The notes beneath the pieces are model-generated. The model had not been told where the DNA came from. It searched no databases and saw only the letters and a list, made by a program, of their open reading frames with translations. A stretch of 64,000 nt of DNA from Vicinamibacterales bacterium (GTDB lineage: Bacteria; Acidobacteriota; Vicinamibacteria; Vicinamibacterales; 2-12-FULL-66-21): positions 67,574 through 131,573 of the forward strand of contig DATBJJ010000103.1 of the NCBI GenBank assembly GCA_036556425.1. Direction: 5' to 3'. Positions 723-49,333 of this stretch are shown piece after piece (within the stretch, counting starts at the first letter, position 1; every line of letters begins with the position of its first letter). The position numbers and the translations under genes were made by a program.

Positions 723-723
723 G

Positions 724-2202: not shown

Positions 2203-2356
2203 GCGTCATCGCCGGTCATTCCGCACCGGCAGGATTTGCGATACCTCAGAGTTTGGTCGTACGAAGAATCTGCGACCACTGATTCATCCAGCGCCGGGTT
2301 CTCGCGTAATTTCCGTCAACCGCTCGACGGCATGAGCGTTGCCTCACGCCCGCGGC

Positions 2357-14909: not shown

Positions 14910-16315
14910 GAAGGAATCCGTGCGCTCCAGAAATAGTAAACAGGCAAGCCAATCGCCAACAGACCCAAACCCGCCAGCGATTCAAACGGCCGCTCGACCA
15001 GCGTGTTGAGGACGAATGCGATCCCGCCGAGGATGAACACGATCGGTACGACGGGATAGCCCCACGTTCGATAGGGGCGATGGCGATCGGGCATCGTGCG
15101 CCGCAGCCGGAACAACGCGGCGCCTCCGGCCACGCTGAACAGCAGCGACGCGAACATCACGTACGTGAAGAGCTGCTCGTACGTGCCCGACAGCGCGAGA
15201 ATCGACGACCAGATCGTCAGGCCGACGATGGCGTAGTGCGGCGTCCGGTACTTCGGGTGCACGCGCTTCGCCGATGGAAAGAAGAGGCCATCCACCGCCA
15301 TCGCGAACAGCAGGCGCGAGCCGGCGAGAATGGCGGCGGCGTTGCAGCCGAACGTCGACAGCACGACGGTCGCCGCGACGAACGTCGCGCCCGCGGGACC
15401 GACGAGCGCCGTCGCCGCGCGCTCGGCGATCCGCGTCACGCCTTTCATTTCGTCGATCGTGAGCGCGAACAAGTACGCGACGTTGACGCTGACGTAAACC
15501 GACGTCAGAAGCAGCAGGCCGCCGAGCAGCGCGCGCGGGAGATTGCGCTGCGGATCCTTGATCTCGCCGGCCGCGTACGTGATGAAGTACCACGCTTCGT
15601 ACGTCCACAGCACGGCAATCATCGCGATGCCGAACGACGCGGCCGGCCGCGCGAGATCGGGAGGAACGATCGGCACGAACGACGGCTCCACGCGCGTGAC
15701 CGCGAGCGCCATCAGCGGAAGGGCCGCGAGGCCGCCAATTTTCGCGGCCGTCAAAACCGCGTTCACCATGTTGCCCGTGCGAACGCCGACGTAGTTGATC
15801 GCGCCGAGCGCCACGATCGCCGCGGCGGCAACGAGCTGCGCGGCGGATAGCGAGAGCGTCCCGACGCTGAAGATCACGCGCGACGACGACAGCGACGGCA
15901 CGAAATAACTGAGCCATTCCGCGAATCCGATCGCGACCGCGGCGATGCCTCCGCTGATGACGACGAGCAGCGCCGCCCATCCGTACAGGAAAGCGATGAG
16001 GGGACCGAACGCTTCGCGTAGAAACACGTAGACGCCGCCGGAGCGCGGGAACATGGCGCCCATTTCGGCGTATGTCAAGCCGCCGGCGATCGCGAGCACG
16101 CCGCCCAGCGTCCACGCCAGGAGCAGAAGCGTCGCCGACGGAATGATCGACGCCATGCCGCCCGTGGTCATGAAGATGCCGGAGCCGATCACGCTGCCGG
16201 CGACGAGCAGGACCGCCGAACCGAGTCCGATCGCGCGGACCAACCCGGCGTCGTCGTCCGTTACCTTTGGCGAATTCGTCGTCGTGGCCATCGAGCCGAG
16301 TGCGGACTGTAGCAC
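14906..16315 (-). CDS. APC-family amino acid permease
   Basis: 469 aa with 12 or more hydrophobic helices and the GSVIGSGIFMTTG signature. Its stop overlaps the panE ATG (ATGA). Confidence 0.85.
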   Translation of the reverse strand: MLQSALGSMATTTNSPKVTDDDAGLVRAIGLGSAVLLVAGSVIGSGIFMTTGGMASIIPSATLLLLAWTLGGVLAIAGGLTYAEMGAMFPRSGGVYVFLREAFGPLIAFLYGWAALLVVISGGIAAVAIGFAEWLSYFVPSLSSSRVIFSVGTLSLSAAQLVAAAAIVALGAINYVGVRTGNMVNAVLTAAKIGGLAALPLMALAVTRVEPSFVPIVPPDLARPAASFGIAMIAVLWTYEAWYFITYAAGEIKDPQRNLPRALLGGLLLLTSVYVSVNVAYLFALTIDEMKGVTRIAERAATALVGPAGATFVAATVVLSTFGCNAAAILAGSRLLFAMAVDGLFFPSAKRVHPKYRTPHYAIVGLTIWSSILALSGTYEQLFTYVMFASLLFSVAGGAALFRLRRTMPDRHRPYRTWGYPVVPIVFILGGIAFVLNTLVERPFESLAGLGLLAIGLPVYYFWSARIPS

Positions 16316-16349
16316 GGAGGGATCGAGACTGCCCCGCCCGGCGAGTGCG

Positions 16350-16358
16350 TGCTAGAAT
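16350..16358 (+). promoter_or_regulatory. Extended -10-like element TGcTAGAAT upstream of the amidohydrolase gene
   Basis: TG at 16350-16351 and TAGAAT at 16353-16358. An RBS GGAGGGG at 16396-16402 precedes ATG 16406. Confidence 0.35.
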
Positions 16359-16405
16359 CCCCGGCTGAGGGCCGACGGCTCGTGCCGCCGTTCTCGGAGG
16401 GGTTC

Positions 16406-18145
16406 ATGGCCGCCCGCCTTACTGCCTATGTCGTCGTCGGAATCGTCGCGGCGACGCTCATCGCCGGCCTCATCGTCGGCGCGCAGCGAAACGAAAACGA
16501 CAGCGACGGCCCGGTCGATCTAATCGTTCAAAACGCGAACATCTACACGGCCGGCTCGGGCGGAACGATGGCTGAAGCCATGGCCATCCGCGGCAACCAG
16601 ATTCTGCGCGTCGGCAGCGACCGCGACATCGCGCGCCTTCGGAAGCCGCAGACCACCGTCATCGACGCGAAAGGCGGCGCGGTCGTACCGGGATTCAGCG
16701 ACGCGCACGCGCACCTGGTCGACGGCGGACTCAACCTGGACCGCGTCGACTTGACGGATGCGTCGACGCTCGAAGAAATCGAGGAGCGCGTTCAGACGTG
16801 GGCCGAAGCTCATCCCGACGCCGCGTGGGTGACGGGGCGCGGATGGACGTTCGCGGCGTTCGGCAGCTCGGCGCCGACTCGCCAGCAGCTCGACGCGATC
16901 GTGCCCGGCAAGCCGGTGCAACTCGTAAGTGAGGACGGCAAAGCGTCCTGGGTGAACACGCGCGCGCTCCGCGCGGCGGCGATCACGCGGAAGACCGTCA
17001 GTCCCGAGGGAGGCGCGATCGTCAAGGACGCGCGGAGCGGCGAGCCCACCGGCGTTCTGCGCGGCGCGGCGATGTCGCTCGTCAGCCGTCACGTGCCGCG
17101 GGCGTCGATCGAAGAACGCGGACGCGCGCTGCGTGCGGCGATCGCCGAAGCGAACCGCTTCGGCATCACCAGCATCCAGACGCCGGACGGAACCGCCGAC
17201 GAGCTCGAGCTGTTCGCGGAGGCGCGAAAGGCGGGGGACCTCACGGTCCGGTTGTACTCGGCGCTTGCGCTTCGCGGAGAGGTCAACGACGCGAAGCTCC
17301 GCGAGCTGGACGCGATCGCTTCTCGATATCCAGACGATCCGTTGTTCAAATCGGGCGCCGTGAGCTTCACACTCGACGGCTCGATCGAGACGCGAACCGC
17401 GGCGCTGCTCGAGCCGTACGCCGACGAGACGTCGTCGGGGGTGCCGACGATCGCTCCCGACGATTTCAATCGCATGGTTCGTCTCCTCGACGCGCGCGGC
17501 TGGCAGGTGCTCGCGGCAGCCGTGGGCGATCGCGCGGTGCAGATGGCGCTCAATGCGTTCGAGCACGCGGTCCGGTCGAATCCGGTGCCGGAGCGCGGGC
17601 GGCGTCATCGGATCGAGCACGTCGGCACGGTCGACATCCTCGATCAGCCGAGGTTTGGCGCGCTCGGCGTGATTGCGTCGATGCAGCCGGCGACAACGTT
17701 GCCGACGGCGGGACGGATCGACCTGCTGACGTCGGCGATTGGCGCGGCACGCGCGTCGCGCGCGTCAGCATACGCGAGCATCGCGAGCGGCCGCGGCCGT
17801 CTCGCGTTCGGAAGCGATTGGCCGTTCGCCTCCTTCAACCCCATGGTCGGCCTGCACGCAGCGGTCACGCGCACGACGACGGACAATACGCCGGACGGCG
17901 GTTGGTATCCGGCCGAGCGTCTCGCATTGCCGGCCGCGATCGACGCGTATACCTCCGGCGCGGCGTGGGCGTCGTTCGACGAGCAGCGGAAGGGAACGCT
18001 TCAGGCAGGGATGCTGGCGGATATCGTCGTGCTGTCCGAGGATATCTTCGAGGCGCCGCCGTCGCGGCTCGCATCGACTCGCGTTGCGTTGACGATCTTC
18101 GACGGCAAGATCGTCTACCGCCGCGACAATTCCCACACGAACTAG
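16406..18145 (+). CDS. Amidohydrolase-3 (YtcJ-like) metal-dependent hydrolase with an N-terminal membrane anchor or signal
   Basis: VVPGFSDAHAHLVDGG metal motif, an internal HRIEHV, and a C-terminal ADIVVLSEDIF pattern. Start chosen at ATG 16406 after a strong RBS. Confidence 0.82.
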   Translation: MAARLTAYVVVGIVAATLIAGLIVGAQRNENDSDGPVDLIVQNANIYTAGSGGTMAEAMAIRGNQILRVGSDRDIARLRKPQTTVIDAKGGAVVPGFSDAHAHLVDGGLNLDRVDLTDASTLEEIEERVQTWAEAHPDAAWVTGRGWTFAAFGSSAPTRQQLDAIVPGKPVQLVSEDGKASWVNTRALRAAAITRKTVSPEGGAIVKDARSGEPTGVLRGAAMSLVSRHVPRASIEERGRALRAAIAEANRFGITSIQTPDGTADELELFAEARKAGDLTVRLYSALALRGEVNDAKLRELDAIASRYPDDPLFKSGAVSFTLDGSIETRTAALLEPYADETSSGVPTIAPDDFNRMVRLLDARGWQVLAAAVGDRAVQMALNAFEHAVRSNPVPERGRRHRIEHVGTVDILDQPRFGALGVIASMQPATTLPTAGRIDLLTSAIGAARASRASAYASIASGRGRLAFGSDWPFASFNPMVGLHAAVTRTTTDNTPDGGWYPAERLALPAAIDAYTSGAAWASFDEQRKGTLQAGMLADIVVLSEDIFEAPPSRLASTRVALTIFDGKIVYRRDNSHTN

Positions 18146-19497
18146 CGAACGATCGACTCGACGACGTACTTTCCTGGCTCGGCGGCCGGCTTGACGAGCG
18201 CGATCCGCGCGGGCTGGCCGACCGCGATGGTGACGCTCCCCTTCGCTTTCCACTCCGGCAGATCGACGATGTCGCCCGTCTTGGTTCGATCGTCGGCGAT
18301 CGGAACGGCGGTCATCCCCGTGGCGTCGATTGTGCGCAGCGCGCCGAGCGTCCGCAGATCGCCAAGATCGTCGACCGTCAGCGACATCTGCATCTCGCGT
18401 CGTCCGTCGACGATCTGCACGCGCCGGTTCGCGACGATCCCGATGTCCGCCGTGAACGGTGGAACGCCGGCGCCGTTGATGAGCGTCGCGTTGGTGATCA
18501 ACACGAACAGCAGACGCGACTCGTTCACCGGGAGCGTTTCGTAGCGGCGAGGATCGGCACGCTCGACCTGTCCGGTGGCGAGCGCGTCGAGCGCCGACAC
18601 GATCGCGACGAAGTTCAAGCGGACGAGCGCGCCGTCCGGCTCCTGCGACGGCCACGGACCGGTCTCGATCAGCACGACCGGCGTTCCCCACAACGTGATG
18701 TTGTCGCCGAACGCGCGGACCTCGAACTCGTCGTCGTACCGGCCGATCTGACCCGACGCAAACGGCTCGAGCGCGTCGCGAATCACGGCGCAGAGCTGCT
18801 TCGTCAGCGTCCGGCCGGCGTTCTCCGTCCTGGCCTCGTCGAACGCCACCGAGAGCAGCGAGATCGATGCGGGCTTCGGCGGATCGCCGACGGACGTCCG
18901 CCAGCCCTGGTTATGCAGGTTGAATCCGACGCGCGGGTTGAATCGATCGCGAAGGCCCTTGAGCGCGCGGCCTTCGGGCGTCTGCAGCCGCAGCGCGTCG
19001 CGATTGACGTCGATGCCTTGCGCGTTGCGGCGCTGAAAGCGCTCCGCGCCGTCCGGATTCAGCATCGGGACGATGTGGAGCGTGAGGCTCGCGAGGATGC
19101 GGCGGACGACCGGTTCGTCGCGGTGCTTTCGCAGGTAGTCGAAGAAATCGAACAGCGCGGAGGTCGCGGTCGGCTCGTCGCCATGCATCTGCGACCACAG
19201 CAGCACGCCTGTCGCCCCCGATCCGACGCGCACTGCGTTGATCGACCGACCTTCGACCGATTCGCCGATTCTCTCGACGGAAAAAAGCTCCGGCCCCGTC
19301 CGCTGGAGCTCGTCGAGGCGGCGGACCACTTCCGCGTGATCGACGAGCGGCGCGAGCGGCGGCGACACGTGCTCCGCGTCCCAGATGCTCGCGAGCTCCA
19401 CCGGGGAAACGAGTGCGTCGCGGGCCGGCTGACGCGCGAGCGGCGCGCTGACGATCGACGCGCATAGCGCCGCCAGCGCGGCGAGCCAGGTTTTCAT
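18142..19497 (-). CDS. Secreted M14-family zinc carboxypeptidase
   Basis: MKTWLAALAALCASIVSA signal, HGDE (HxxE) in WSQMHGDEPT, NPDGAERF and FNLHNQG. ATG 19497 is preceded by GGAG. Confidence 0.8.
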   Translation of the reverse strand: MKTWLAALAALCASIVSAPLARQPARDALVSPVELASIWDAEHVSPPLAPLVDHAEVVRRLDELQRTGPELFSVERIGESVEGRSINAVRVGSGATGVLLWSQMHGDEPTATSALFDFFDYLRKHRDEPVVRRILASLTLHIVPMLNPDGAERFQRRNAQGIDVNRDALRLQTPEGRALKGLRDRFNPRVGFNLHNQGWRTSVGDPPKPASISLLSVAFDEARTENAGRTLTKQLCAVIRDALEPFASGQIGRYDDEFEVRAFGDNITLWGTPVVLIETGPWPSQEPDGALVRLNFVAIVSALDALATGQVERADPRRYETLPVNESRLLFVLITNATLINGAGVPPFTADIGIVANRRVQIVDGRREMQMSLTVDDLGDLRTLGALRTIDATGMTAVPIADDRTKTGDIVDLPEWKAKGSVTIAVGQPARIALVKPAAEPGKYVVESIVR

Positions 19498-19508
19498 GCG
19501 GGCTCCGG

Positions 19509-20036
19509 TCAACGATAGTGCAGCGTCAGCAGCGTCGGCGGTCCCTTCGGTTCCCCCGCCGGCGTGACGAGAAACAGTTTGTCGAACTCGTCGTCCGCGA
19601 TGGCGGGCGGAGTCGCGATCCCCAGCGCTTTGACGATTGGGGGGATTGTATTCGAGTGGCCGATCACGAGCGCGTTGCCCTGTGCCGCCTTGAGCTGCGC
19701 CAGGAGCGACGCCGTATCGCCCGACTTCACCGTGATCACCGGCAGGCCGAGCGCCTTGGCGGCCGGTGCCGCCGTCTGTTGCGTGCGCTTGAATTCCGTC
19801 GCGAAGATGGCCGTGATCCCCGCGTCCTTGAGCACGCCTGCCAGCGACGCCGCGCGCGCGCGACCGATGTCCGAGAGATCGGGATCCGCACCCGCCGGCG
19901 GCGGCGTCGGCGAACCCGCGTCGGCTCGCTCGGCATGGCGCGCGATGAAGATCGTCTGTTGTGCGTTTGCGAGGCGGGCGGCGCTCAGCGCGAACGCGAG
20001 CGCGAAGAGTACACAAATCAGCGTTCGTCGCATCAT
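19509..20036 (-). CDS. Secreted histidine-phosphatase superfamily protein (SixA/PGAM-like)
   Basis: Signal peptide MMRRTLICVLFALAFALSAARLANA, then IARHAERAD (RHG-type motif) and VIGHSNTI. ATG 20036 overlaps the permease stop (ATGA). Confidence 0.7.
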   Translation of the reverse strand: MMRRTLICVLFALAFALSAARLANAQQTIFIARHAERADAGSPTPPPAGADPDLSDIGRARAASLAGVLKDAGITAIFATEFKRTQQTAAPAAKALGLPVITVKSGDTASLLAQLKAAQGNALVIGHSNTIPPIVKALGIATPPAIADDEFDKLFLVTPAGEPKGPPTLLTLHYR

Positions 20037-21352
20037 CGACTCTCCTGACCGATCGATCGGATCGCAGCAACATACAACACGGCGCCCGCCGCAATGGCAA
20101 TCGCGCCCGCGACGAGCTGCTCGGTTCGCGCGCCGGCCAACATCGCGAGCGCAATCACGATTGCGGCGGCGGGAACGAACGGGCCGCCCGGCACCACGAA
20201 CGTCGGCGGACTCACGCGGCCGTCGTAGCGAGCGGAGCGCAGCCGGAGCGTCGACGCGCACGTGGCGACGTAGACGATCAGCCGGCTGATCGCGCTGACG
20301 AGCGCAAGCTGCGCATAGCGGCCCGACAGCGCGAGCAGGAGCGCGACGCCGGACGTCACCAGAATCGCGGTGACGGGCGTGCGGAATCGCGGGTGCACCC
20401 ATCCGAAGACGCGCGGCAGATCGCCCTGCTCCGCGAGCGCGAACAGGTTGCGCGATCCGGACAGCGCCTGGCCCATGTTGTTCCCAGTGGTCGAGAACAC
20501 GGCGCCGACCGTGATCAGCGCGGCGCCGATGCCTCCCATGAAGAGCAGCGCGGCATCGGCGAGCGGCGTCTTCGAACCGGCCAGACCGGGAAGCGTGCCG
20601 AGCGCCACGACCTGCGTCAGCGTCATCACCACCGTCACGATCGCGATGGTCATGATCAGCGCGAACGGCACCGCGTGCCGCGGATCCTTCGCCTCGCCGG
20701 CGGGGACCGGGATCACTTCGTACCCGCCGAACGCGAAGATGAGCAGCAGGCCGGTCGCGGACAGCTCCGCCATCGGCAGGGTCCCCTGCGGCACGAGGCG
20801 CGACGTGTCGACGAAGAAGATGCCGACCGCGATGAACACGAGGATCGGGAGCAGCTTTCCAATCGTCAGCAGGTTCAGCACGAAGCTGCTCTGACGGATG
20901 CCGCGAATGTTGATCGCGGTGATCGCCGCGATCAGAATGACGATGAGCCCCGCGCGGAGGGGACCGGCGCCGAGCGCGGGAATGTAGAAGGCCAGCGCCG
21001 TGGCGAGCACGTTGATCACGGCGGCCCAACTGGCGGCGCGCGTGAACCACAGCATCCATCCAACTTCGAACGCCGCGAATCGTCCGAACGCCGCGCGCGT
21101 GTAGAGATACGGTCCGCCGGTTCCTTCGAACCGGCTGCCGACTTCGGCGAACGACAGCGCGATGAGGAGCGACGCGATCCCGACGGCGCCGACGAGCCAA
21201 GGGCTCCACGCGCCCACGCTCGCCGCGTAGAGCGAGGGCTGAGCGAAGATCGCCGCGCCAATCACCTGATTGACGCCGATCGCGGTGAGGTCCCACCGGC
21301 CCAGCTCGCGTCGAAGCGTGCCCGCCGGCGGCGAGGCAGCGGGACTGATCAT
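20033..21352 (-). CDS. APC-family amino acid permease
   Basis: 439 aa, polytopic, with LTAIGVNQVIGAAIF near the N-terminus. Confidence 0.85.
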   Translation of the reverse strand: MISPAASPPAGTLRRELGRWDLTAIGVNQVIGAAIFAQPSLYAASVGAWSPWLVGAVGIASLLIALSFAEVGSRFEGTGGPYLYTRAAFGRFAAFEVGWMLWFTRAASWAAVINVLATALAFYIPALGAGPLRAGLIVILIAAITAINIRGIRQSSFVLNLLTIGKLLPILVFIAVGIFFVDTSRLVPQGTLPMAELSATGLLLIFAFGGYEVIPVPAGEAKDPRHAVPFALIMTIAIVTVVMTLTQVVALGTLPGLAGSKTPLADAALLFMGGIGAALITVGAVFSTTGNNMGQALSGSRNLFALAEQGDLPRVFGWVHPRFRTPVTAILVTSGVALLLALSGRYAQLALVSAISRLIVYVATCASTLRLRSARYDGRVSPPTFVVPGGPFVPAAAIVIALAMLAGARTEQLVAGAIAIAAGAVLYVAAIRSIGQESR

Positions 21353-36216: not shown

Positions 36217-37929
36217 ATGTCGGCATCGAGACGAATCGCCTGGATCGCGGCGCTGGCGTTGTGCACGTTGACGGGATCGGCCGCCATCGCGGAGCGCGCG
36301 TCGAGCGTGCCCTCGAAGCCCGACGACCGCACGATCGTGCACGTGCTGAATCGGCTCGGCTTCGGCGCCGCACCGGGCGACATCGAGCGCGTCCGGCGCA
36401 TCGGCCTCCAGACCTACATCGATCAACAGCTCAACCCGGAGCGCATCGCAAACGAGAAGATGACCGCGCGCCTCGCGGACCTCAAGACGCTCGCGATGTC
36501 GACGAGCGAGCTCGCGACGGAATACTTCGCGCCGGCGCAGATGGCGCGCCGCGAAGCGCAGCGCAAGCAGGCCGCGCAGGATCCGTCGATGTCCGCCGAC
36601 AATCCGCCTGACCCCGCGTCGCGCCGCGAGATGATGACGCCGGAACAGGCCGAAGCGATCCGCATGGAGCGGCAGACGCTGACGGACTTGATGCAAGCGA
36701 AGATGCTGCGCGCCGTCTACTCCGAGCGGCAGCTCGAAGAAGTGATGGTGGACTTCTGGTTCAATCACTTCAACGTGTTCTCGGGCAAGGGTCCGATCCG
36801 CGTTTACCTGAACGAGTACGAACGAGACACGATTCGCCCGCACGTGCTCGGCAAGTTCGAGGATCTCTTGAAGGCGACCGCCGAGAGCCCGGCGATGCTC
36901 TTCTATCTCGACAACTGGCAGAGCGCCGCGGCCGAGGGCGCGCCGACGCTCGATCGCATGCAATCGGATCGTCGTTTCAATCCACGCAATCGCGGGCGCT
37001 TTCCTCCGAGGATGCGTCCCGGCGCGCCGAATCGGCCGGCGACGCTCGCGGACGTGCCCGGCGCCCTCAACAGACGACGGGGGTTGAACGAGAACTACGC
37101 GCGCGAGCTGATGGAGCTGCACACGCTCGGCGTCGACGGCGGCTACACGCAGAAAGACGTTCAAGAAATCGCGCGCGCGTTCACGGGCTGGACGATCGCG
37201 AATCCGCGCCAAGGTGGAGCCTTCCGGTTCGAGCCGCGCATGCACGACGCCGGCGAGAAGATCGTGCTCGGCACGAAGATCAAGAGCGGCGGCGGCAAGT
37301 CCGACGGCGATCAGGTTCTCGCGCTGCTCGCGAAGCATCCGTCCACCGCACGATTCATCGCGACGAAGCTCGCGCGGCGGTTCGTCGCCGACGATCCGCC
37401 GAAAGCGCTGGTCGATCGCGCCGCGCGGCGGTTCCTCGAGACGGGCGGCAGCATCCGCGACGTCGTGAAGACGATCGTCACCTCGGACGAGTTCTTCGCC
37501 GCCGACGCCTACCGCGCGAAGGTCAAGTCGCCGTTCGAGTTCGTCGCAAGCGCCGTCCGCTCGACCGGCCTCGATCTCCCGAACGCGATGCCGCTCGTGC
37601 AGGCCGTCCGCACGCTGGGTATGCCGCTCTACGGATGCCAGCCGCCGACCGGCTACGCGGACAAGGCGGAAGCGTGGGTCAACTCCGGCGCGCTCATCAA
37701 CCGCATGAACTTCGCGGTCTCGCTCACCTCGGGCGGCGCGCGCGGCGAGGCAATGCGCGCCCTCGCGCGGCGGACCGTCGATCGGCCCTCGATCACGAGC
37801 GACGCGCTCATCGAATCCGCGCTCGCGGGAGAGCTCTCCGCGACGACCGCGGCGACCGTGGCGCAAGCGAAGACGCAGCCGCAGGCGCTCGCGCTCCTCC
37901 TGGGCTCGCCGGATTTCCAGAAAAAGTAG
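36217..37929 (+). CDS. DUF1800-family protein (secreted)
   Basis: Signal peptide MSASRRIAWIAALALCTLTGSAAIA, then HVLNRLGFGAAPGD, FWFNHFNV, NENYARELMELHTLGVDGGYTQKDV and GGGKSDGDQVL. Confidence 0.8.
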   Translation: MSASRRIAWIAALALCTLTGSAAIAERASSVPSKPDDRTIVHVLNRLGFGAAPGDIERVRRIGLQTYIDQQLNPERIANEKMTARLADLKTLAMSTSELATEYFAPAQMARREAQRKQAAQDPSMSADNPPDPASRREMMTPEQAEAIRMERQTLTDLMQAKMLRAVYSERQLEEVMVDFWFNHFNVFSGKGPIRVYLNEYERDTIRPHVLGKFEDLLKATAESPAMLFYLDNWQSAAAEGAPTLDRMQSDRRFNPRNRGRFPPRMRPGAPNRPATLADVPGALNRRRGLNENYARELMELHTLGVDGGYTQKDVQEIARAFTGWTIANPRQGGAFRFEPRMHDAGEKIVLGTKIKSGGGKSDGDQVLALLAKHPSTARFIATKLARRFVADDPPKALVDRAARRFLETGGSIRDVVKTIVTSDEFFAADAYRAKVKSPFEFVASAVRSTGLDLPNAMPLVQAVRTLGMPLYGCQPPTGYADKAEAWVNSGALINRMNFAVSLTSGGARGEAMRALARRTVDRPSITSDALIESALAGELSATTAATVAQAKTQPQALALLLGSPDFQKK

Positions 37930-37936
37930 GACGACC

Positions 37937-39172
37937 ATGATCTCGAGACGAGTGTTCCTGAGAGACGGCGGGCTCGCGTTGGTCAGCCTCGGGTTCGCGC
38001 CGGAGTTCATCGCGCGCACCGTCGCCGCGGCGGCGCCGAGGCGCAAAGTGCTCGTGACGATCTTCCAGCGCGGCGCCGTCGACGGCCTCAACATGATCGT
38101 GCCGTTCGGCGAACGCGACTACTACGCGTCGCGTCCGAGCATCGCCATCGCGCGGCCGGGATCGTCGCCCGAGGCGGCGCTCGATCTGGACGGCTTCTTC
38201 GGCATGCACCCGCGCATGGCGCCGCTCAAGCCGCTTTACGACGCGCGTCAGCTCGCGATCGTCCATGCGTGCGGATCCCCGGACGGCACGCGGTCCCACT
38301 TCGACGCGCAGGACTACATGGAGACGGCGACGCCCGGCGTGAAGAGCACGCAGGACGGATGGCTGAACCGCTATCTCCACGCGCGCGAGCACGAGCGCGC
38401 GACGCCGTTCCGCGCGGTCGCGATGGCCCCGCAGCTGCCGCGCGCGCTGCAGGGACTCGCCCCCGCCTTGGCGATCGGACAGATCGGCCAGTTCGGCATC
38501 CGCGCCGGCCAGTCGACCGACATGGTGCAGGCGTCGTTCGAAGCGGAGTATGCCGCCGCCGCGAACGGCGTCCTGAATCGCACCGGGCGCGACGCGTTCA
38601 ACGCCGTCAAGATGCTGAAGGATGCGGATCCGTCGCGATACGCGCCGGAGAACGGCGCCGAATACCCGCGATCGCCCTACGGCGACGCGCTGAAGCAGAT
38701 CGCGCAATTGATCAAGGCGGACGTCGGCCTCGAGGTCGCGTTCGCGGAAACCGGCAACTGGGACCATCACGCGCAGGAAGGCGCGGCGGTCGGCCAGCTC
38801 GCGAATCGCCTCGCGGACTTCTCCGGCGGCATCGCGGCGCTCGTCCGCGATCTCGGCGATCGCATGAGCGACGTCGTCGTCCTGACCATGTCGGAGTTCG
38901 GACGCACCGTCGGCGAGAACGGCAATCGCGGCACGGATCACGGGCACGGCAACGCGATGATGATCATCGGCGGCGGCATCAAGGGCGGAAAGGTCTACGG
39001 AAAATGGCCGGGCCTGGCGCGCGAGCAGCTCTACGAAGGGCGTGATCTCGCGGTCACGACCGATTTCCGCACCGTCTTCGCGGAAGTCGCGGGCGGACAC
39101 CTCGGCCTCACGAACATGGCGCACGTCTTCCCCGGCTTCAAAGGACCGGTCAAGGTGGGCGCGCTGGGCTAA
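37937..39172 (+). CDS. DUF1501-family protein with a Tat-type signal
   Basis: MISRRVFLRDGGLALVSLGF twin-arginine-like N-terminus, then SEFGRTVGENGNRGTDHGHGN. It starts 7 nt after the DUF1800 gene. Confidence 0.8.
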   Translation: MISRRVFLRDGGLALVSLGFAPEFIARTVAAAAPRRKVLVTIFQRGAVDGLNMIVPFGERDYYASRPSIAIARPGSSPEAALDLDGFFGMHPRMAPLKPLYDARQLAIVHACGSPDGTRSHFDAQDYMETATPGVKSTQDGWLNRYLHAREHERATPFRAVAMAPQLPRALQGLAPALAIGQIGQFGIRAGQSTDMVQASFEAEYAAAANGVLNRTGRDAFNAVKMLKDADPSRYAPENGAEYPRSPYGDALKQIAQLIKADVGLEVAFAETGNWDHHAQEGAAVGQLANRLADFSGGIAALVRDLGDRMSDVVVLTMSEFGRTVGENGNRGTDHGHGNAMMIIGGGIKGGKVYGKWPGLAREQLYEGRDLAVTTDFRTVFAEVAGGHLGLTNMAHVFPGFKGPVKVGALG

Positions 39173-39190: not shown

Positions 39191-40330
39191 GTGAGGCTGA
39201 CCGAGCTCCGCACTCCCGCCGTCCTGGTCGACACCGCGCGCGTCGCTCGCAACATCGATCGCATGCAGGCCGCCGTTGACGCGCGCGGCATCCGCCTTCG
39301 TCCACACGCGAAGACGCACAAGCTGCCCGAGATGGCGCGCCGGCAGATCGCGCGCGGCGCGATCGGAATCTGCTGCGCGAAGCTCGGCGAGGCGGAGGTC
39401 TTTGCCGACGCGGGGATCGAGGACATCAGGCTTCCCTACCCTCTCCACCCGGTGAACGCCGATCGAGTGCTCGCGCTCCTCGATCGCACGCGCCTCTCGT
39501 TCATCGTCGATGACCTGGAGATCGCGCGCGAATGGTCGGGCGTCATGACGTCGGCGGGACGAACGGTCGACGTGCTCGTCAAGGTCGACGTTGGATTCCA
39601 TCGCTGCGGGATCGACCCCGATCGTCCTGATGCCGCGAATCTCGTCGCGAAGATCGCGGATCTCGGAGGGCTGCGCTTTCGAGGGCTCCTGAGCCATGCC
39701 GGGCATGGATACGGCGCCGCGTCGGATCAGGAGACCGCGGCGATTGCGGCGGCCGAGGCGCGGCTGCTCGCGGCGCTCGCCGAGCAGGCGGGGGACCTCG
39801 GCGTGAAGACGGATGAGATCAGCGTGGGCGCGACGCCGACGGCGCGCTTCAGCGTGCAGCAGCGGGGGATCACCGAGCTGCGGCCGGGGAACTACATCTA
39901 CTACGACCGCACGCAGGTCGGCCTCGCCGCCGCGAATTGGGAGGACTGCGCCCTCACCGTCCTCGCGCGCGTCGTCAGCACGCCGAGTCCCGATCGCATC
40001 ATTCTCGATTCAGGCAGCAAGACGCTGACGAACGATCTCGCGCGCGGCTTTGGGAGCACGCCAGGGTACGGTGTCGTGTTCGCGAGCCTGGACGCGCGCG
40101 CGCCGAACGAGTCGCTGCTCGTCGAGCGGCTGTCGGAGGAGCACGCGACCGTGCGCGTCCTCGACGGCGGCCGCGGCCTGAAGACGGGCGAGCTCGTCAG
40201 GATCCTGCCGAATCACTCCTGCGTCGTGTCGAATCTCGTCGACTCGGCATGGCTCGTCGACGGCGATGGCGCCATGGAAGACGCGAGCGTCGAAAAGATC
40301 GATATTGCCGCGCGCGGGCGGATCGCATAG
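39191..40330 (+). CDS. D-TA family PLP-dependent enzyme (D-threonine aldolase / D-serine dehydratase-like, alanine-racemase-N fold)
   Basis: [14 protein letters not shown] contains the PLP-lysine motif, and a SHAGHGY segment is present. GTG start 18 nt after the DUF1501 gene. Confidence 0.75.
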
Positions 40331-40353
40331 TAGAATACGGGTCCTCATCTCCT

Positions 40354-40641
40354 ATGGCGAAAGAGCTCCCCGGCGAAGCACTCGGCCTCGTGGAAACGCG
40401 CGGGCTGGTGGGCATGATCGAAGCGGCCGACGCGATGGTCAAGGCCGCGAACGTGCTGTTCGTCGGCTGGCAGAAGGTCGACGCGGGGCTCGTCACCGCA
40501 ATCGTCCGCGGCGACGTCGCGTCCGTCAAAGCCGCGACCGACGCGGGGGCTGCGGCGGCGCGGCGCGTGGGCGAGCTCGTGGGCGTTCACGTGATCCCAC
40601 GGCCTGCTGACGGCCTCGATAAAGTCTTTCCAATCGGCTAG
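40354..40641 (+). CDS. Bacterial microcompartment shell protein, BMC-H (PduA/EutM/CcmK-type, single BMC domain)
   Basis: [77 protein letters not shown] is near-colinear with PduA as I remember it. Length is 95 aa. It starts 23 nt after the D-TA gene. Confidence 0.9.
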
Positions 40642-40660: not shown

Positions 40661-41134
40661 TCATCTCGATTTCTTCTTCCGCCGTTTGCGCGACGCGTGC
40701 ACTTTCGCGGTCAGCTCTCGGAACGTCGGCTCGCCGCCGACGACGAGGAGCGGCTGAGCGGGATCGCGGAGCACGTTGAAGAACTCGCCGCGCGTGGTGC
40801 GCGCGTAGATGTCGCGGCCGTCGGTCATGAGCGTCAGCGGACCGGTTCCGCCGATCGCGTCGAAGAGGCGGATGCCGAATTCGCTTCGCAGCGTCTCGAG
40901 CAGAAGCCGGATGCGAGCGATCGTCATGCCGTGACGCCGCAGATCCGCCAACACCATCAGCTCGAGGAGATCGACCGGCGTGTAGCGGCGCTCGGTGAAG
41001 CCGCCTGCCGCCGTCGGCTTCGGCCCGACCGCGGATTGAAAGAGCCGGCGGTCGTCCCACCACTGGAGCTGGCGCGCGGAGAGCCCCGTCAACGCGGCGA
41101 CTTCACGTGCGCTGTACGAGTTCTTCAGCTGCAT
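40661..41134 (-). CDS. MerR-family transcriptional regulator
   Basis: YSAREVAALTGLSARQLQWWDDRRL HTH at the N-terminus, with a basic KRRKKKSR tail. Confidence 0.75.
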   Translation of the reverse strand: MQLKNSYSAREVAALTGLSARQLQWWDDRRLFQSAVGPKPTAAGGFTERRYTPVDLLELMVLADLRRHGMTIARIRLLLETLRSEFGIRLFDAIGGTGPLTLMTDGRDIYARTTRGEFFNVLRDPAQPLLVVGGEPTFRELTAKVHASRKRRKKKSR

Positions 41135-41154
41135 TCAGCGCCGCTCCGGCCGCG

Positions 41155-41463
41155 TCATTTGCCGCCCATCGCGGCGGCGACATCGGACGCTCGCTGGGCG
41201 CCGGCGAAATCCTTGTCGGTCAGGCCGCCCTCGCTGTGGGTGCTGTAGGTGAGCGTCACCCGCTTGTAGTTCACGAGCATGTCGGGATGATGGTCGGCCG
41301 CTTCGGCCTCGAAGCCCAGCCGTACGACGAAGGCGATCGCATCCGGGAAGCCCGCAAAGGTGAACGTGCGGCGGATGGCCGCGCCGTCTAACTCCCAGCC
41401 GGACAGCTTCTTGAGCCGCTCGGCCGCCTCCGCTGCGCCTATGGTCGCCATGCGGAGAAGCAT
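41155..41463 (-). CDS. Pterin-4-alpha-carbinolamine dehydratase
   Basis: LSGWELDGAAIRRTFTFAGFPDAIAFVVRLGFEAEAADHHPDMLVNYKRVTLTYSTH is the characteristic PCD pattern. Confidence 0.85.
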   Translation of the reverse strand: MLLRMATIGAAEAAERLKKLSGWELDGAAIRRTFTFAGFPDAIAFVVRLGFEAEAADHHPDMLVNYKRVTLTYSTHSEGGLTDKDFAGAQRASDVAAAMGGK

Positions 41464-43536: not shown

Positions 43537-46500
43537 ATGCAGTGGCTCGCTTCAATCTCCGTTCGTCGTCCGGTCTTCGCGACCGTCATCACTCTCTCGC
43601 TGACCGTCGTCGGCGCCTTCGCGTTCACGCGCCTCGGCCTCGACCGGTTTCCCAAAGTCGACTTCCCGACCGTTGTCGTCACGACACGGTTCCCTGGTGC
43701 GGCACCCGAGGAAGTCGAGACCGAAGTCACCGACAAGATCGAGGAAGCGGTCAACACGATCAGCGGGATCGACGAGCTTCGATCGAATTCGTCGGAAGGC
43801 GTCTCGCAGGTCATCATCGCGTTCCTCCTCGAAAAGGACGGCGACGTTGCCGCTCAGGAAGTCCGCGATCGCGTGAACCGCGTGCTGCCGCTGCTGCCTC
43901 GAACGATCGAGCAGCCGACGGTCGAGAAGTTCGATCCCGATTCCGCGCCGGTCATGACGCTCGCGGTCTCCGCGCCCGCGCCCATCCGCGACATCACCGA
44001 ATACGCGGACAAGAAGCTGCGCCGTCAGCTCGAGAGCGTCAGCGGCGTTGGACAGGTCGTGGTCGTCGGCGGACGCGCCCGGCAGATCAACTTCCTCCTC
44101 GACGCCGACCGGCTGCGCGCTTACAACCTGACGGTCACCGACGTGTCTCGCGCGATTCAGATGCAGAACGCCGAGATTCCCGGCGGCCGCGTCGAGCAGG
44201 GCGCGACGGCCATGACGCTGCGCACGCGCGGCAGGGTCGGCGCGGTCGAACAGTTCGGCGACATCGTCGTGCGCCAGCGCGAAGGCCATCCGGTGCTGCT
44301 GCGCGACGTCGCGACGATCGAAGACGGCATGGCGGAGGCGGAGACGACCGCGAACCTCAACGGCGAGCCTGGCGTGATGCTCACGGTCCGCCGGCAGTCG
44401 GGGACGAACACCGTGCAGGTCGTCGACGCGGTCAAGGAGCGGCTCGCGGAAGTCTCCCCGCTCGCGCCGGCCGGATACCAAATCCGCGTCGTCCGCGATC
44501 TGTCGGAGTTCATCAAAGCATCGATCGCGAGCGTGGAGGAACATCTCGTCCTCGGATCGATTCTCGCGGCGGCCGTCGTGCTCGTCTTCCTGTGGAACTG
44601 GCGCTCGACGTTCATCGCCGCGGTGGCGATCCCGACGTCGATCATCGCGACCTTCGGCCTGATCTGGTATCAGGGCTTCACGCTCAACTCGATGACGATG
44701 CTCGCGCTCACGCTGGCGGTCGGCATCGTCATCGACGATGCGATCGTCGTGCTTGAGAACATCTATCGCTTCGTCGAGGAGAAGGGACGTCCGCCGATGC
44801 AGGCCGCGATCGAGGCGACGCGCGAAATCGGATTGGCCGTCCTCGCGACGACGCTGTCGCTCGTCGCGATCTTCGTGCCGGTCGGCTTCATGGGCGGCAT
44901 CGTCGGCCGCTTCATGACGAGCTTCGGATTCACGATGTCGTTCGCGATCCTCGTGTCGCTGCTCGTCAGCTTCACGCTCACGCCGATGCTCGCGTCGCGC
45001 TGGATCAAGATGCATCCGCGGCGTGAAGACGCCGAGGGTCACGCGATCGAAGAGAAGACGTCGAGGGACAAGGGTTTCTTCGGCGCGCTCGATCGGCGGT
45101 ATACGTCGATTCTCGGCTGGTCGCTCGCTCATCGCGGCATCGTTGCGGGAATCGCGGTGCTCGTGCTGCTCAGCAGCGTTCCGCTGTTCATGATCGCGAA
45201 CAAGAACTTCCTGCCGAGCGACGATCAATCGGAGTTCGAGGTCGGACTTCGAGCGCCCGAGGGCACGAGCCTCGAGGCAACCGAAATCATCGCGAATCGG
45301 ATCGCGAGCCGCATTCAGCAGGTGACGGGCGTCAGCTACACGCTCGTCACGGTCGCGGACGATCCGGCGCGGACGCAGAACGTCGGCACGATCTACGTGC
45401 GGCTCACGCCGGTCCACGAGCGCGATCTCGATCAGTTCGCCATCATGAATGCGGTTCGCGCGGAAGTGCTTCCGAACGTCGGCGTGCCGAACCTGCGCAC
45501 CGGCGTGCGTCCGGTTGCGACGATCGGCGGCGGGGGCAATCAGAACGCGGAGATTCAGTTCACGATCAGCGGTCCCGATCTGAAGAAGCTCGAGCAATAC
45601 GCGAGCGCGGTCATCGCCGAAGCGAAAAAAGAGCACGGCGTCGTCGACGTCGATACGTCGCTGAACGTCGGCAAGCCCGAGCTGTCGGTGCATCTCGACC
45701 GCCTGAAGGCGGCGGACCTCGGCGTGCAGATCTCCGACGCCGCGGAAGCGCTGCGCCTGCTCGTCGGCGGCGACGAGATCACGACCTACAACGAAGGAGG
45801 CGAGCAATACGAGGTGCACGTGCGGGCGGTCGAGGGCAACCGGCAGACGGCCGAGGCCATCGGCCAGCTGACCGTGCCGTCGAGCACCGTGGGCAGCGTG
45901 CCGCTCGTCAACATCGCCGAGCTCACGCGCGGCACGGCGCCGTCGGAAATCAACCGCCTCAACCGTCAGCGTCAAGTCACGGTGTACGCTGGACTGCTGC
46001 AGGGCGTGTCGCAGGTTCCGGCGATGGACGCAATGACGCGCGCGGCGTCCGGGCTTGGCATGGGGCCCGGCTACAGCACGCGGTTTGCGGGCCGATCGCG
46101 CGAGCTTGGCCGCGCGGCTCAAAACTTCCTGATTGCGTTCGGGCTCTCTCTCGTGTTCATGTACTTGATCCTCGCGGCGCAGTTCGAGTCGTGGCTCCAC
46201 CCCATCACGATCCTGCTGTCGCTGCCGCTGACGTTGCCGTTCGCGCTCTTGTCGATCATCATCGCAGGACAGTCGCTGAACATCTTCTCGGCGCTCGGGC
46301 TCTTGGTGCTGTTCGGTGTCGTCAAAAAGAACTCGATCCTGCAAATCGATCACGCGAATCAACTGCGTGAGCGCGGCATGGAGCGCGATCGCGCGGTGCT
46401 GCAGGCGAGCCGCGATCGGCTGCGGCCGATCCTCATGACGACGCTTGCGTTCGTGGCGGGTATGATCCCGCTGGTGTTGTCGAGCGGCGTGGGGTCGGCG

Positions 46501-48252
46501 ACGAATCGCGCCATCGGCTTCGTCATTATCGGAGGTCAATCGCTCGTGCTTCTTCTCACTCTCGTTGCCACTCCGGTCGCCTATTCCTTGTTCGACGATC
46601 TCTCGAAGATCAGGCTCTGGCGCTGGAAGCGCGCGGCCGCTCCGGCGACCGCGACGCTTCTCGCGCTCGCGCTGTGGTCCTCGTCTGCTTCCGCGCAGAC
46701 GCAAACGACCACGACGACGTCGACGGCTCCCGCGCAGGCTGGACAAATCCAACCTGCCGCCGGGCAGACCGTCTTGAAGCTCACGCGCGACGAGGCGATT
46801 CGCCTCGCGCTCGACAACAACCCTGACCTCGCGGTCAGCCGATTCGACCCGTCGATCGGTGACGCGCAGGTCGCCGCCGCGCGCGGCGCGTTCATGCCTT
46901 CGGTCCAGACAGGATTCCAACGGAACAGCCAGGCGGCGCCGGCAACGAACCTGTTCGCCGGCGACGAAGGCATCAAGACGAACCTGTGGACGTCGAACGT
47001 GCAGCTCAATCAGCTTCTGCCGTGGGGCGGCGGATCGTACTCGGCCAGCCTCGAGGCCTCGCGCAACGCGACCAACAGCCTGTTGACCAGCCTGAACCCT
47101 GAGCTGGGCGCAGGCCTCTCGTTCGCGGTCTCGCAGCCGCTGCTCCGCGACTTCCGGATCGACACCGCGCGGGCGCAGGTCGACGTGAGCCGCCGCAACC
47201 GCGAGCTCGCCGGAAGCCGGTTCCGCGAGACGACGGTGAACACGGGCGCCGACGCGGAGCGCGCGTACTGGGCGCTCGTCGCGGCGCTCGCGCTCGTGGA
47301 CGTCCAGCAGCGATCGCTCGACCTCGCGCTCGAGCTCGAGCGCAACAATCGCGCGCGCGTCGACGTGGGCCAATCGCCGCCGCTCGATCTCGTCGCGGCG
47401 CGCGCGGAGGTCGCGCAGCGTCAAGAGAATCTGATCATCGCGCGCACGGCGGCGCTCCAGACGGAAGACACGCTGCGAACGATCGTCGTCGATCCGAAGC
47501 GCGACGACTACTGGTCCATTCGGCTCGAACCCGCGGATCGCGTACCGGTCGTCGCGACCAAGCCGGACGTCGACGCCGCGGTTCGGCGGGCGCTCGGCGA
47601 ACGGACGGACGTGTCCCGCGCGAAGACCGAGATCCAGATCAACGACACGTCGGTCTCGCTCTCGAAGAGCCAGACACTACCCGACCTGCGCGTGCAAGCG
47701 AGCTATTTGAGCGACGGGGCCGGCGGCACGCGCATCCTTCGCGAGGGCTTTCTCGGGCCGGTCATCGGCACCGAGCGCACGAGCTTCGGCAGCACGCTCG
47801 GCCAAGTGTTCAGCGGGGACTTTCCCAATTGGACCGTCGGCGTGACGCTCAGCTATCCGCTCGGCAACAGCACGGCCGAGGCCAACCTCGCGCGCGCGAA
47901 GCTCGAGCGCGATCAATCCGCCGCGCGCCTGCGCGCGACGGAGCTGAACGTCGTCCGCGAAGTTCGTCAGGCGGCGCTTCGCCTGGATCAGAACCGCCAG
48001 CGCATCGAGACGACGAAGCTCGCGCGCGAGCTGGCCGAGCAGCGGCTCGACGCCGAACAGAAGCGATTCGAAGTCGGCATGTCGACGAGCTTTCTCGTGA
48101 TTCAGGCGCAGCGCGATCTGGCGATCGCACGGAACAGCGAGCTGCAGGCGCTGCTCGACTATCAGCTTGCCGTCATCGCGTTCGAGCAGGTGCAGCAGAC
48201 CAGCTCGTCGCCGGTCGTCACGATTCTCAGGGCAGCCGGCCAGGGCCAGTAA
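43537..48252 (+). CDS. RND (AcrB-like) permease continuous in frame with a TolC-like outer-membrane factor (1571-aa ORF). The junction carries a signal-peptide-like segment.
   Basis: The AcrB-type N-terminus [20 protein letters not shown] runs through 12 TM segments to ...[13 protein letters not shown] (about codon 1020). It is followed without a stop by [31 protein letters not shown]|QTQ. A TolC-family repeat pattern follows ([17 protein letters not shown]...). TTG 46588 is the only in-frame near-cognate start at the junction. Confidence 0.75.
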
Positions 48253-49333
48253 GCATCAGCGCGGGATCTTCTCGATCGTCGAGCACGAGATCGGCCACGA
48301 CGGCGGCGGTGAGCGGCGCAAGCAGCACGCCGTTGCGGAAGTGGCCGGTCGCGTACACGAGCCCGTTGATCTGCGGCGATCGGCCGATGAGCGGCAGCCC
48401 GTCGCTCGTGGCGGGGCGCAGTCCCGCTCGCGCCTCGAGGAACGTCGCGCCCCACGCCTCCGGAAGGAGATCGCAGGCGGCGTCCAGCAGATCGCGCACG
48501 CCGGCGGCGGTCGTGCGCTCGTCGTATCCAACGTCTTCGACCGTCGCGCCAACGAGCACGGTGCCGTCCTTCCACGGCACGACGTAGCAATCCTTTCCCC
48601 AGATCACATGTGAGATCGGGCTGCCGATCCACGCCAGTCTAATCGTCTGCCCGCGAACCGGGCGCACGCTGCGCGCGGCCGGCTCGGCGCGTTCGAGCTG
48701 CGACGTCCAGCTCCCGGCCGCCACGATCACCGTTGGCGCGGTCCACGACGCGCCGTCGTCCGCAACGACGCGCAGACGATCGCCGTCGGCGTCGATCGCG
48801 CGGATGTGGCGTCCGGTCTCGAGCTCCGCGCCGTGGCGGAGCGCCGCCCACACGAGCGCTTCGGTCAGCGCCGGCACAGCGACGTATCCATGCATGGGGG
48901 ATCGCAGCGCGCCCTCGATGGCGGGCGGGAGCGCCGGCTCGAGCCGACGCGCGCGCTCGGGGGTGAGCCACTCGAGCCCCGCGCCGGCGTTCGCGTCTGC
49001 CGAGGCGCGGAGGTGGTGCGCGTGCGTCGGATCGACGGCAATCTCGAGCGAGCCGCAGCGGCGGTAGTCGACGTCCGCGCCGGAGTCGTCCACGACTGCG
49101 CGAATGAAGGCGTCGTACAGCGTCAGGCTTCGCAGCGCGAGATCGAAAAACGGTCCGCGCTCGTGGCCTTCGATGTACGGCGCGAGGATGCCTGCCGAGG
49201 CGTGCGTCGCGCCGGCGCCGATCGAGCGCGCCTCGAACAACCTCACGCGTCCGCCGCGCCGCGCAATCTCATGCGCGACGGCGCACCCGATGATCCCTCC
49301 GCCGACGACGATGACGTCTGCGCCCGCGCGCAT
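48227..49333 (-). CDS. FAD-dependent oxidoreductase of the DAO family, glycine-oxidase (ThiO)-like
   Basis: [30 protein letters not shown]...[12 protein letters not shown]. The 3' end overlaps the convergent RND-OMF ORF by 26 nt. Confidence 0.7.

Follow-up and report, generated by a model that had tools for sequence, protein, structure and literature searches.

The lone BMC-H shell gene in the stretch of soil Vicinamibacterales (Acidobacteriota) DNA analyzed here (64,000 nucleotides, G+C ~67%; hereafter the window) probably encodes a satellite BMC-H, i.e., a second hexamer-forming subunit for the shell of the ACI microcompartment, the core genes of which would lie elsewhere in the genome. This core would consist of a class II aldolase bearing an encapsulation peptide at its C-terminus, the major BMC-H, a triplet of BMC-P genes and a 2-hydroxyacid dehydrogenase; the aldehyde dehydrogenase of the compartment would be located at a further site. 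The gene is most likely an ordinary satellite shell paralogue of a catalogued BMC type, with no sign of a new compartment. Satellite shell genes are already known in general and a lone BMC-H has been catalogued in ACI-type Acidobacteria; what is added here is a sharply defined, near-invariant Vicinamibacterales clade whose pore loop contains an aspartate and whose edge motif is altered.

The BMC-H gene and its neighborhood

Table 1. Genes around the BMC-H gene (positions are those of the window)
Feature	Position	Strand	Profile matches and remarks
DUF1800 protein	36220-37929	+	PF08811, 480.1 bits; context only
DUF1501 protein	37937-39172	+	PF07394, 136.3 bits; context only
Fold-type-III PLP enzyme, 379 aa	39191-40330	+	PF01168 and PF14031
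Satellite-type BMC-H shell gene, 95 aa	40354-40641	+	PF00936, 96.8 bits
MerR-family regulator	40661-41134	-	PF13411, 44 bits; convergent with the BMC-H gene
Pterin-4a-carbinolamine dehydratase	41155-41463	-	PF01329, 94.9 bits; NCBIfam NF002017, 100.8 bits (cut-off 80)

The genes for the DUF1800 protein, the DUF1501 protein, the PLP enzyme and the BMC-H protein (Table 1) are separated by spacers of 7, 18 and 23 nt, respectively. The last of these lies between the TAG stop codon of the PLP-enzyme gene (40328-40330) and the ATG of the BMC-H gene on the same strand, just as had been proposed in the first-pass annotation of this DNA; the start of the BMC-H gene at 40354 is supported by the N-terminus MAKELPGE, which is conserved in the orthologues. 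In the window, the BMC-H gene is apparently the end of a DUF1800-DUF1501-PLP enzyme unit, and in other loci it is clearly monocistronic. RNA contigs bridge the junction between the DUF1501 and PLP-enzyme genes, and the spacer between the PLP-enzyme and BMC-H genes (40331-40353) is covered by none of the RNA contigs found. For the BMC-H gene, there is an exact match of 123 nt, inclusive of the codon for D43, to a contig from a soil metatranscriptome; contamination of such libraries by DNA is possible. A scan for promoters and terminators between 38900 and 41600 yielded nothing useful.

On the other side, synteny indicates that the convergently transcribed MerR regulator gene is a conserved neighbor of the BMC-H gene in most relatives; the gene for the pterin-4a-carbinolamine dehydratase, which shares a minus-strand unit with it, is likewise a conserved neighbor. 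Beyond this pair lie a TetR gene and an RND efflux system. The translated DUF1501 protein displays a twin-arginine-like signal at its N-terminus (MISRRVFLRDGG...), and it is therefore probably exported and no candidate for a cargo protein. DUF1800 is the usual partner of DUF1501, and its upstream place is kept in the relatives.

Inspection of the BMC-H protein itself reveals a match to the whole PF00936 model (residues 9-84 to model positions 1-75; E 7.5e-28, against a Pfam cut-off of 24.5 bits). It can be aligned without gaps to several solved hexamers, namely EutM of E. coli (3MPW; residues 8-95 to 2-89, 118.9 bits), PduA (3NGK; 117.4 bits) and the HO (Haliangium) shell hexamer (5DJB). The protein has a non-permuted topology with a single BMC domain colinear with these hexamers, and the initial assignment to the PduA/EutM type is thus confirmed. 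Its pore loop reads Q40-K41-V42-D43-A44-G45, of which D43, A44 and G45 align with the three consecutive glycines of the EutM pore loop in the ungapped alignment and, by our count, with G39-S40-G41 of PduA. Further, it retains the edge lysine K30, the counterpart of the lysine in D-A-M-V-K, and the edge arginine R83; in the ungapped alignment these two correspond to the tiling residues K26 and R79 of PduA. The edge motif is PRPA and not PRPH, with A85 at the position of H81 in PduA. Both K30 and R83 are found in the window protein and in 20 of 21 fetched loci, the exception being L011 with a histidine at position 83.

The search for other microcompartment genes in the window was carried out in two ways. 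Pfam scans of ~55 candidate ORFs across the 64 kb detected no PF03319 and no second PF00936 domain, and also no PF00171 aldehyde dehydrogenase, PTAC, glycyl-radical enzyme or RuBisCO. Additionally, tblastn searches of the window with three BMC-P proteins, an ACI aldolase and a main-locus BMC-H as queries matched only the known BMC-H gene (E 2.9e-34), all other matches having E values of at least 0.26. The absence of any other BMC gene from the 64 kb, noted in the first reading of this DNA, hence holds for both the 40 kb upstream and the 23 kb downstream of the BMC-H gene.

A constrained clade of probable satellite BMC-H proteins

More than 23 public contigs carry a gene for the identical 95-residue protein, which is present in the assemblies GCA_046734615.1 and GCA_049642465.1. 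Other genomes bearing the satellite gene include OZ252293.1, CAVWRG01, CAWIWL01, CAWHUA01 and a 3.2-Mb contig of ERZ28493056. A scan with one genome per species, in which two of the search peptides are common to many main-type BMC-H proteins, recovered at least 80 loci among the matches listed, mostly from Vicinamibacterales, Pyrinomonadaceae and other Acidobacteriota MAGs. The orthologues of the window protein among them are 83-96% identical to it and, with the exception of L020, come from MAGs labelled Vicinamibacterales or Acidobacteriota.

Comparison of the BMC-H loci shows that they fall into two classes without mixing. Class 1, the satellite class, accounts for 21 of the first 88 fetched loci and for four later ones, and is defined by a (Q/E)(K/R)VDAG pore loop and a PRP(A/V/S/G) edge motif; residues G20, S57, G77 and F92 are invariant in 21 of its sequences (the window protein and L001-L020). 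Class 2, the main class, combines an EKIG(A/S)G pore loop with PRPH and is directly flanked by the gene for a class II aldolase on one side and by the three BMC-P genes on the other. In the DNA examined around the class 1 loci, up to 10 kb on each side, neither BMC-P nor aldolase genes were found near any of the 21, and the DNA examined around the four later loci likewise has none. The other 67 loci, comprising class 2 and a few other BMC-H contexts, possess BMC-P in 64 cases and both BMC-P and the aldolase in 59.

The nucleotide sequences of the satellite genes point to pronounced constraint on the protein. Between the window gene and its counterparts in five other species-level variants (L001-L005) there are 44-51 nucleotide differences, nearly all of which are in third codon positions, and no amino-acid differences. 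Over the same set, the flanking DUF1501, DUF1800 and PLP-enzyme proteins are 62-93% identical (~62-79% without L003). Judging by this codon-level pattern, purifying selection on the satellite BMC-H is strong and independent. In strength it equals the selection acting on the major shell protein.

With relatedness judged by identity statistics, the nearest relatives of the satellite BMC-H are the main-type BMC-H proteins of the ACI loci: the mean identity of the satellite class is 76% to the Vicinamibacterales main type, 74% to the Blastocatellia type, 67% to EutM and 62% to HO. Between Vicinamibacteria and Blastocatellia, the identity of the main-type proteins is 88%. Thus, main-type proteins from two different classes resemble each other more than either resembles the satellite, which is therefore an old, separately constrained paralogue and no recent copy.

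The ACI main locus and its probable link to the satellite

In independent gene calls with precomputed Pfam assignments, the class 2 loci display the order PdxJ, TPR, small ORF, Aldolase_II, BMC and three EutN_CcmL genes, the triplet often being followed by a small ORF of ~71-81 aa and, in several loci, by a 2-Hacid_dh gene. The aldolase ends in a Pro/Gly-rich linker succeeded by the amphipathic peptide DEIRLTYGELTALIEDAVRNLK. This make-up is that of the published definition of the ACI microcompartment, which is confined to Acidobacteria and occurs mainly in subdivisions 4 and 6 (Sutter et al. 2021, Nat Commun 12:3809). For such genomes the catalogue also lists an additional BMC-H that is "occasionally found ... 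by itself (H_marine)" (Sutter et al. 2021, Supplementary Data 2), and comparison with that catalogue, one of the checks suggested at the outset, accordingly finds a lone BMC-H in ACI genomes already on record.

ACI main loci are common in Vicinamibacterales, where they were found repeatedly. A single MAG among the matches listed, SMAG_U3631, carries both classes. Its class 1 gene (L011) encodes a protein with 95% identity to that of the window, and its class 2 locus (L057) has aldolase, BMC-H and BMC-P; co-occurrence in one genome was seen in this MAG alone, and MAGs can be mis-binned. Taken with the ACI loci of other relatives and the catalogued lone BMC-H, this MAG lends support to the first of the options raised in the first-pass annotation, namely that the gene is a satellite serving a main locus elsewhere. 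In the runs X1-X4 the window has a depth of ~13, 8, 5 and 3, respectively, and the depth of main-locus DNA in those metagenomes runs from hundreds to more than 1000; no main locus can be assigned to the window by depth because, in those soils, main-locus variants with a depth close to that of the window number in the hundreds. From the pattern in the relatives, we infer that an ACI main locus is presumably present in the window's own genome.

The neighboring PLP enzyme

The enzyme encoded upstream of the BMC-H gene combines an Ala_racemase_N domain (PF01168, 99.9 bits) with a D-ser_dehydrat domain (PF14031, 76.7 bits). Its best solved relative is the D-threonine aldolase of Alcaligenes xylosoxidans (AxDTA, 4V15; E 5.5e-50), to residues 22-376 of which (out of 379) its residues 4-376 align without any terminal extension. 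On account of this end-to-end colinearity there is no room for an encapsulation peptide, the presence of which on neighboring enzymes had been suggested as a signature to look for. The PLP lysine, K41, is conserved and aligns with Lys59 of AxDTA. However, the metal motif is PNHSC (His-x-Cys) as opposed to the PSHVD of AxDTA, with a cysteine at the position of the Asp349 ligand, and a glycine aligns with His193, the proposed base of AxDTA, in a part where the alignment is less certain. All D-threonine aldolases share His193 together with the metal ligands His347 and Asp349, whereas D-serine dehydratase (3ANU) and 3LLX have the His/Cys site and are devoid of His193 (PMC4401734). Among the NCBIfam models, matches were limited to the 3-hydroxy-D-aspartate aldolase BhcC (147.8 against a cut-off of 690) and alanine racemase (32.3 against 168).

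On the basis of these active-site residues, the enzyme is better described as D-serine/D-hydroxy-amino-acid dehydratase-like than as a D-threonine aldolase; it would be expected to yield a keto acid and ammonia and no aldehyde. The original rationale for a compartment at this locus, i.e., that a D-threonine-aldolase-type enzyme would release acetaldehyde in need of sequestration, falls with the dehydratase type of these residues. The enzyme is probably not a compartment component.

The first-pass annotation had further asked whether the adjacency of the two genes recurs in relatives, and it does so in part. The PLP-enzyme gene is directly upstream of the BMC-H gene or within 0.7 kb of it in 14 of 22 distinct class 1 loci, is displaced by 2-4 kb in three (L014, L089 and L090), and is missing from the flank in the remaining five (L001/L004, L017, L020, L036 and L109). 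The two are kept apart by unrelated genes on both strands in L089 and L090, and by ~3 kb in L014; hence, co-transcription of the PLP enzyme and the BMC-H is not required. L001 and L004 have no PLP-enzyme gene nearby and nonetheless encode a BMC-H 100% identical to that of the window. As the shell protein is unchanged where the enzyme gene is gone, its function is independent of this neighbor. The upstream neighbors of the class 1 BMC-H genes are variable, including DUF1501, a CarboxypepD_reg protein, DinB and RidA. That said, the presence of the enzyme gene next to the BMC-H gene or within a few kb in 17 of the 22 relatives is more than pure chance would suggest and may reflect some functional tie. 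On balance, the neighborhood is best read as inherited synteny of the Vicinamibacterales lineage. A complete BMC locus elsewhere combined with an unconserved adjacency, which the first-pass annotation had itself named as telling against its more novel proposals, is essentially what is found in the relatives, with this finding pertaining to relatives alone.

Alternative explanations

The frequency of the pairing raises the prospect of a functional module, in which the satellite BMC-H and the D-serine-dehydratase-like enzyme would jointly extend the ACI compartment, by analogy with EutABC and EutL, with the Asp-lined pore admitting or releasing a metabolite tied to the breakdown of D-hydroxy-amino acids. 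Such a module could account for the proximity of the genes in the above-mentioned 14 loci and, more loosely, in the three with a displaced enzyme gene, as well as for the short same-strand spacer in the window and for the clade-wide nature of the change in the pore; moreover, enzyme-plus-shell satellite modules that widen the substrate range are known from the catalogue (Sutter et al. 2021). It is nevertheless rather unlikely: the BMC-H is unchanged in the five lineages without the enzyme gene nearby (and fully identical in L001 and L004), the separation in L089, L090 and L014 makes co-transcription dispensable, the enzyme has no N- or C-terminal extension relative to AxDTA for an encapsulation peptide, and a dehydratase-type enzyme would yield no aldehyde. 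In addition, PF01168 and PF14031 are absent from the supplementary files of the catalogue that were examined, including the table of HMM names. The more radical version of an enzyme-centered reading, put forward in the first-pass annotation as an undescribed minimal compartment for D-amino-acid or aldehyde-generating chemistry, would have this BMC-H alone surround a D-threonine-aldolase-like enzyme to contain acetaldehyde. What speaks for it is adjacency, which is seen in the window and in some relatives and is lost in eight of the 22. Such a compartment would have to operate without vertex protein, aldehyde dehydrogenase or encapsulation peptide around an enzyme which has neither the Asp349 ligand nor His193 and instead bears the His/Cys site of D-serine dehydratase, and it is accordingly deemed highly improbable.

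BMC-H proteins alone can form sheets and tubes, and the hexamer could conversely act as such a sheet, tube or scaffold outside any closed shell, in a host that perhaps does not have a complete BMC. This compartment-independent role would be compatible with the absence of BMC-P and cargo genes from the 64 kb and with one locus, L026, that keeps the BMC-H although the ACI core genes have been lost. However, the protein retains the tiling residues and is as invariant as is typical of subunits that have to fit a multi-protein lattice, the order to which the clade belongs repeatedly has the ACI main locus (with both being found in SMAG_U3631), and no recurrent partner gene points to another function, all of which make it decidedly unlikely. 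The more specific idea in the first-pass annotation, that the hexamer is a scaffold for the adjacent enzyme, is further weakened by the loss of the adjacency in eight of 22 loci without relaxation of the constraint on the BMC-H, and by the lack of room for an encapsulation peptide on the enzyme.

Predicted role of the satellite hexamer and comparison with known systems

In the preferred reading, that of a second hexameric subunit of the ACI shell, the satellite hexamer would co-assemble as a minor subunit with the major BMC-H in the facets of the compartment, an expectation which stems from the retention of the tiling edge lysine and arginine. Its pore would be lined by Asp-Ala-Gly in place of the Gly-Ala/Ser-Gly of the major subunit, and would in consequence be ringed by six carboxylates. 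On account of its placement in a separate transcription unit, the cell could tune the permeability or charge selectivity of the shell independently of the core locus. Altered shell permeability has been proposed as a general function of satellite shell genes (Sutter et al. 2021). A bolder proposal is that the Asp-pore KVDAG/PRPA clade represents a gate subunit forming a cation- or amine-selective channel, with the dehydratase-like neighbor constituting a real metabolic link. Although this conjunction is unlikely, the link, e.g., the supply or removal of a metabolite derived from D-hydroxy-amino acids, would if true be the first clue to the ACI substrate. ACI compartments are abundant in soil and among the commonest organelle types of soil Acidobacteriota, and experiments on the permeability of the ACI shell could make good use of a second hexamer whose pore differs from that of the first.

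The closest parallel is offered by the lone BMC-H satellite of the ACI genomes. The window gene shares with it the occurrence in subdivision 6 (Vicinamibacteria), the presence of a solitary BMC-H gene at a distance from any main locus, and "mostly standard" interface motifs, the window protein having kept the edge lysine and the arginine of PRPx; further, the main locus of the relatives fits the ACI definition. The likeness between the H_marine class and the window clade is one of description. In the parts of the catalogue consulted, its account of the ACI satellite makes no mention of an aspartate in the pore, of PRPA as a variant motif or of the recurrent neighborhood formed by DUF1800-DUF1501-PLP enzyme on one side and MerR-PCD on the other. 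More distant analogies are seen with CcmK3/CcmK4, which are likewise BMC-H paralogues encoded outside the main locus and regulated separately, with a proposed role in tuning shell permeability (Sutter et al. 2021). These, however, are a pair of genes belonging to the anabolic beta-carboxysome, in contrast to the single gene of a catabolic metabolosome proposed for the window. The EUT modules (EutABC with EutL; HO, SPU3, SPU6) also place a shell gene beside an enzyme gene at a satellite site (Sutter et al. 2021); they differ in being a known functional pair, whereas the enzyme in the window has no peptide for targeting and several lineages do without the pairing.

At the level of the protein itself, EutM and PduA share the fold family, length, ungapped alignment, edge lysine and PRPx arginine with the window BMC-H, which is ~67% identical to EutM over residues 8-94. 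Unlike their genes, that of the window lies outside any cargo-enzyme operon. The pore loop is IGGG in EutM and IGSG in PduA, as opposed to VDAG in the window protein, in which the histidine of PRPH is also replaced by alanine.

Conserved neighborhood of the probable satellite BMC-H gene

The surroundings of the satellite BMC-H, the lone 95-aa shell protein gene of the window, are marked by two genes that lie directly downstream and convergent with it, one for a MerR-family regulator and the other for a genuine pterin-4a-carbinolamine dehydratase (PCD; NCBIfam score 100.8 bits, cut-off 80). Among the related loci L001-L020, L108 and L109, most retain this pair at the same place, and some relatives without the upstream PLP enzyme still keep it beside the shell gene. 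Alpha-carboxysome loci include PCD-like proteins, named acRAF; for the satellite BMC-H and its MerR-PCD neighbors nothing suggests more than synteny.

The gene for the dehydratase-like PLP enzyme is broken into two frames in one related locus (L003) and into four in another (L010), the adjoining BMC-H being intact in both; these splits may be assembly frameshift errors or real pseudogenes. The window is further endowed with many amino-acid and peptide scavenging genes, including one for a ThiO-like oxidase (score 316.6 bits, cut-off 250.8), surroundings which fit a compartment-independent catabolic role of the PLP enzyme.

Coordinates of the discussed features (within the window unless a related locus is named)
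Feature	Position	Strand	Remarks
Unannotated ORFs (four)	3-4228
Eco57I/N6-methylase protein	4447-8076	+	1209 aa; best defence-system match DrmMI
Scavenging genes	14906-20154, 48227-49333, 50090-53242		amino-acid permease, Amidohydro_3 enzyme, two M14 carboxypeptidases, ThiO-like glycine/D-amino-acid oxidase
MerR regulator + PCD	40661-41463	-	convergent with satellite BMC-H
RND-TolC-like fusion ORF	43537-48252	+	1571 aa; PF00873 + PF02321
Split PLP-enzyme genes	L003:6391-7513; L010:8825-9943
BMC-H of Pyrinomonadaceae MAG	L021:1156-1416		KIDAG, PQPH
Main-type BMC-H and its slot	L026:8000-11300		KIGAG, PRPH
Satellite-type BMC-H and its neighbors	L036:9182-12002		RVDAG, PRPA; complete chromosome OZ252293.1
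ACI main-locus region used for depth	L057:8600-10634

Variant BMC-H loci and their abundance in soil

Inspection of the related loci reveals further variants. In L026 a main-type BMC-H occupies the usual slot between PdxJ-TPR and endonuclease III, but neither the aldolase gene nor any of the three BMC-P genes is present there; the locus has the look of an ACI main locus that was eroded or relocated. A satellite-type BMC-H in a quite different gene context is seen in L036, where a RidA/YjgF-like gene is divergent and genes for DUF6526 and an M19 membrane dipeptidase adjoin. This pairing is curious, because a dehydratase-like enzyme neighbors the satellite BMC-H elsewhere and the enamines that PLP dehydratases produce are the targets quenched by RidA proteins. 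Additionally, the lone BMC-H of L021 carries an aspartate at the same pore position as the satellite type (KIDAG) but has PQPH as its edge motif, and its sequence suggests that subdivision 4 likewise possesses Asp-pore solo hexamers.

In the soil metagenome runs X1-X4, which contain the window organism, DNA matching the ACI main locus of L057 at >=80% identity attained summed depths of ~60-500 over most of the aldolase gene and ~600-1500 over BMC-H. The depth of the window organism itself is 3-15. These soils are therefore very rich in genes for ACI-type compartments.

Other features of the window

In the fusion ORF, residues 5-1019 form an entire AcrB-type RND pump of the inner membrane and residues ~1346-1551 a TolC-like outer-membrane factor, an odd topology for one protein. 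As four relatives (L001, L003, L004 and L006) encode the same fusion (1557-1582 aa), it is no assembly artefact. At the window start, the four unannotated ORFs had no match in Pfam or PADLOC. The adjacent Eco57I/N6-methylase protein matches DrmMI, the DISARM methylase, best among defence systems (327 bits), with type IIG restriction-modification enzymes ranking lower. The region may constitute a defence island.
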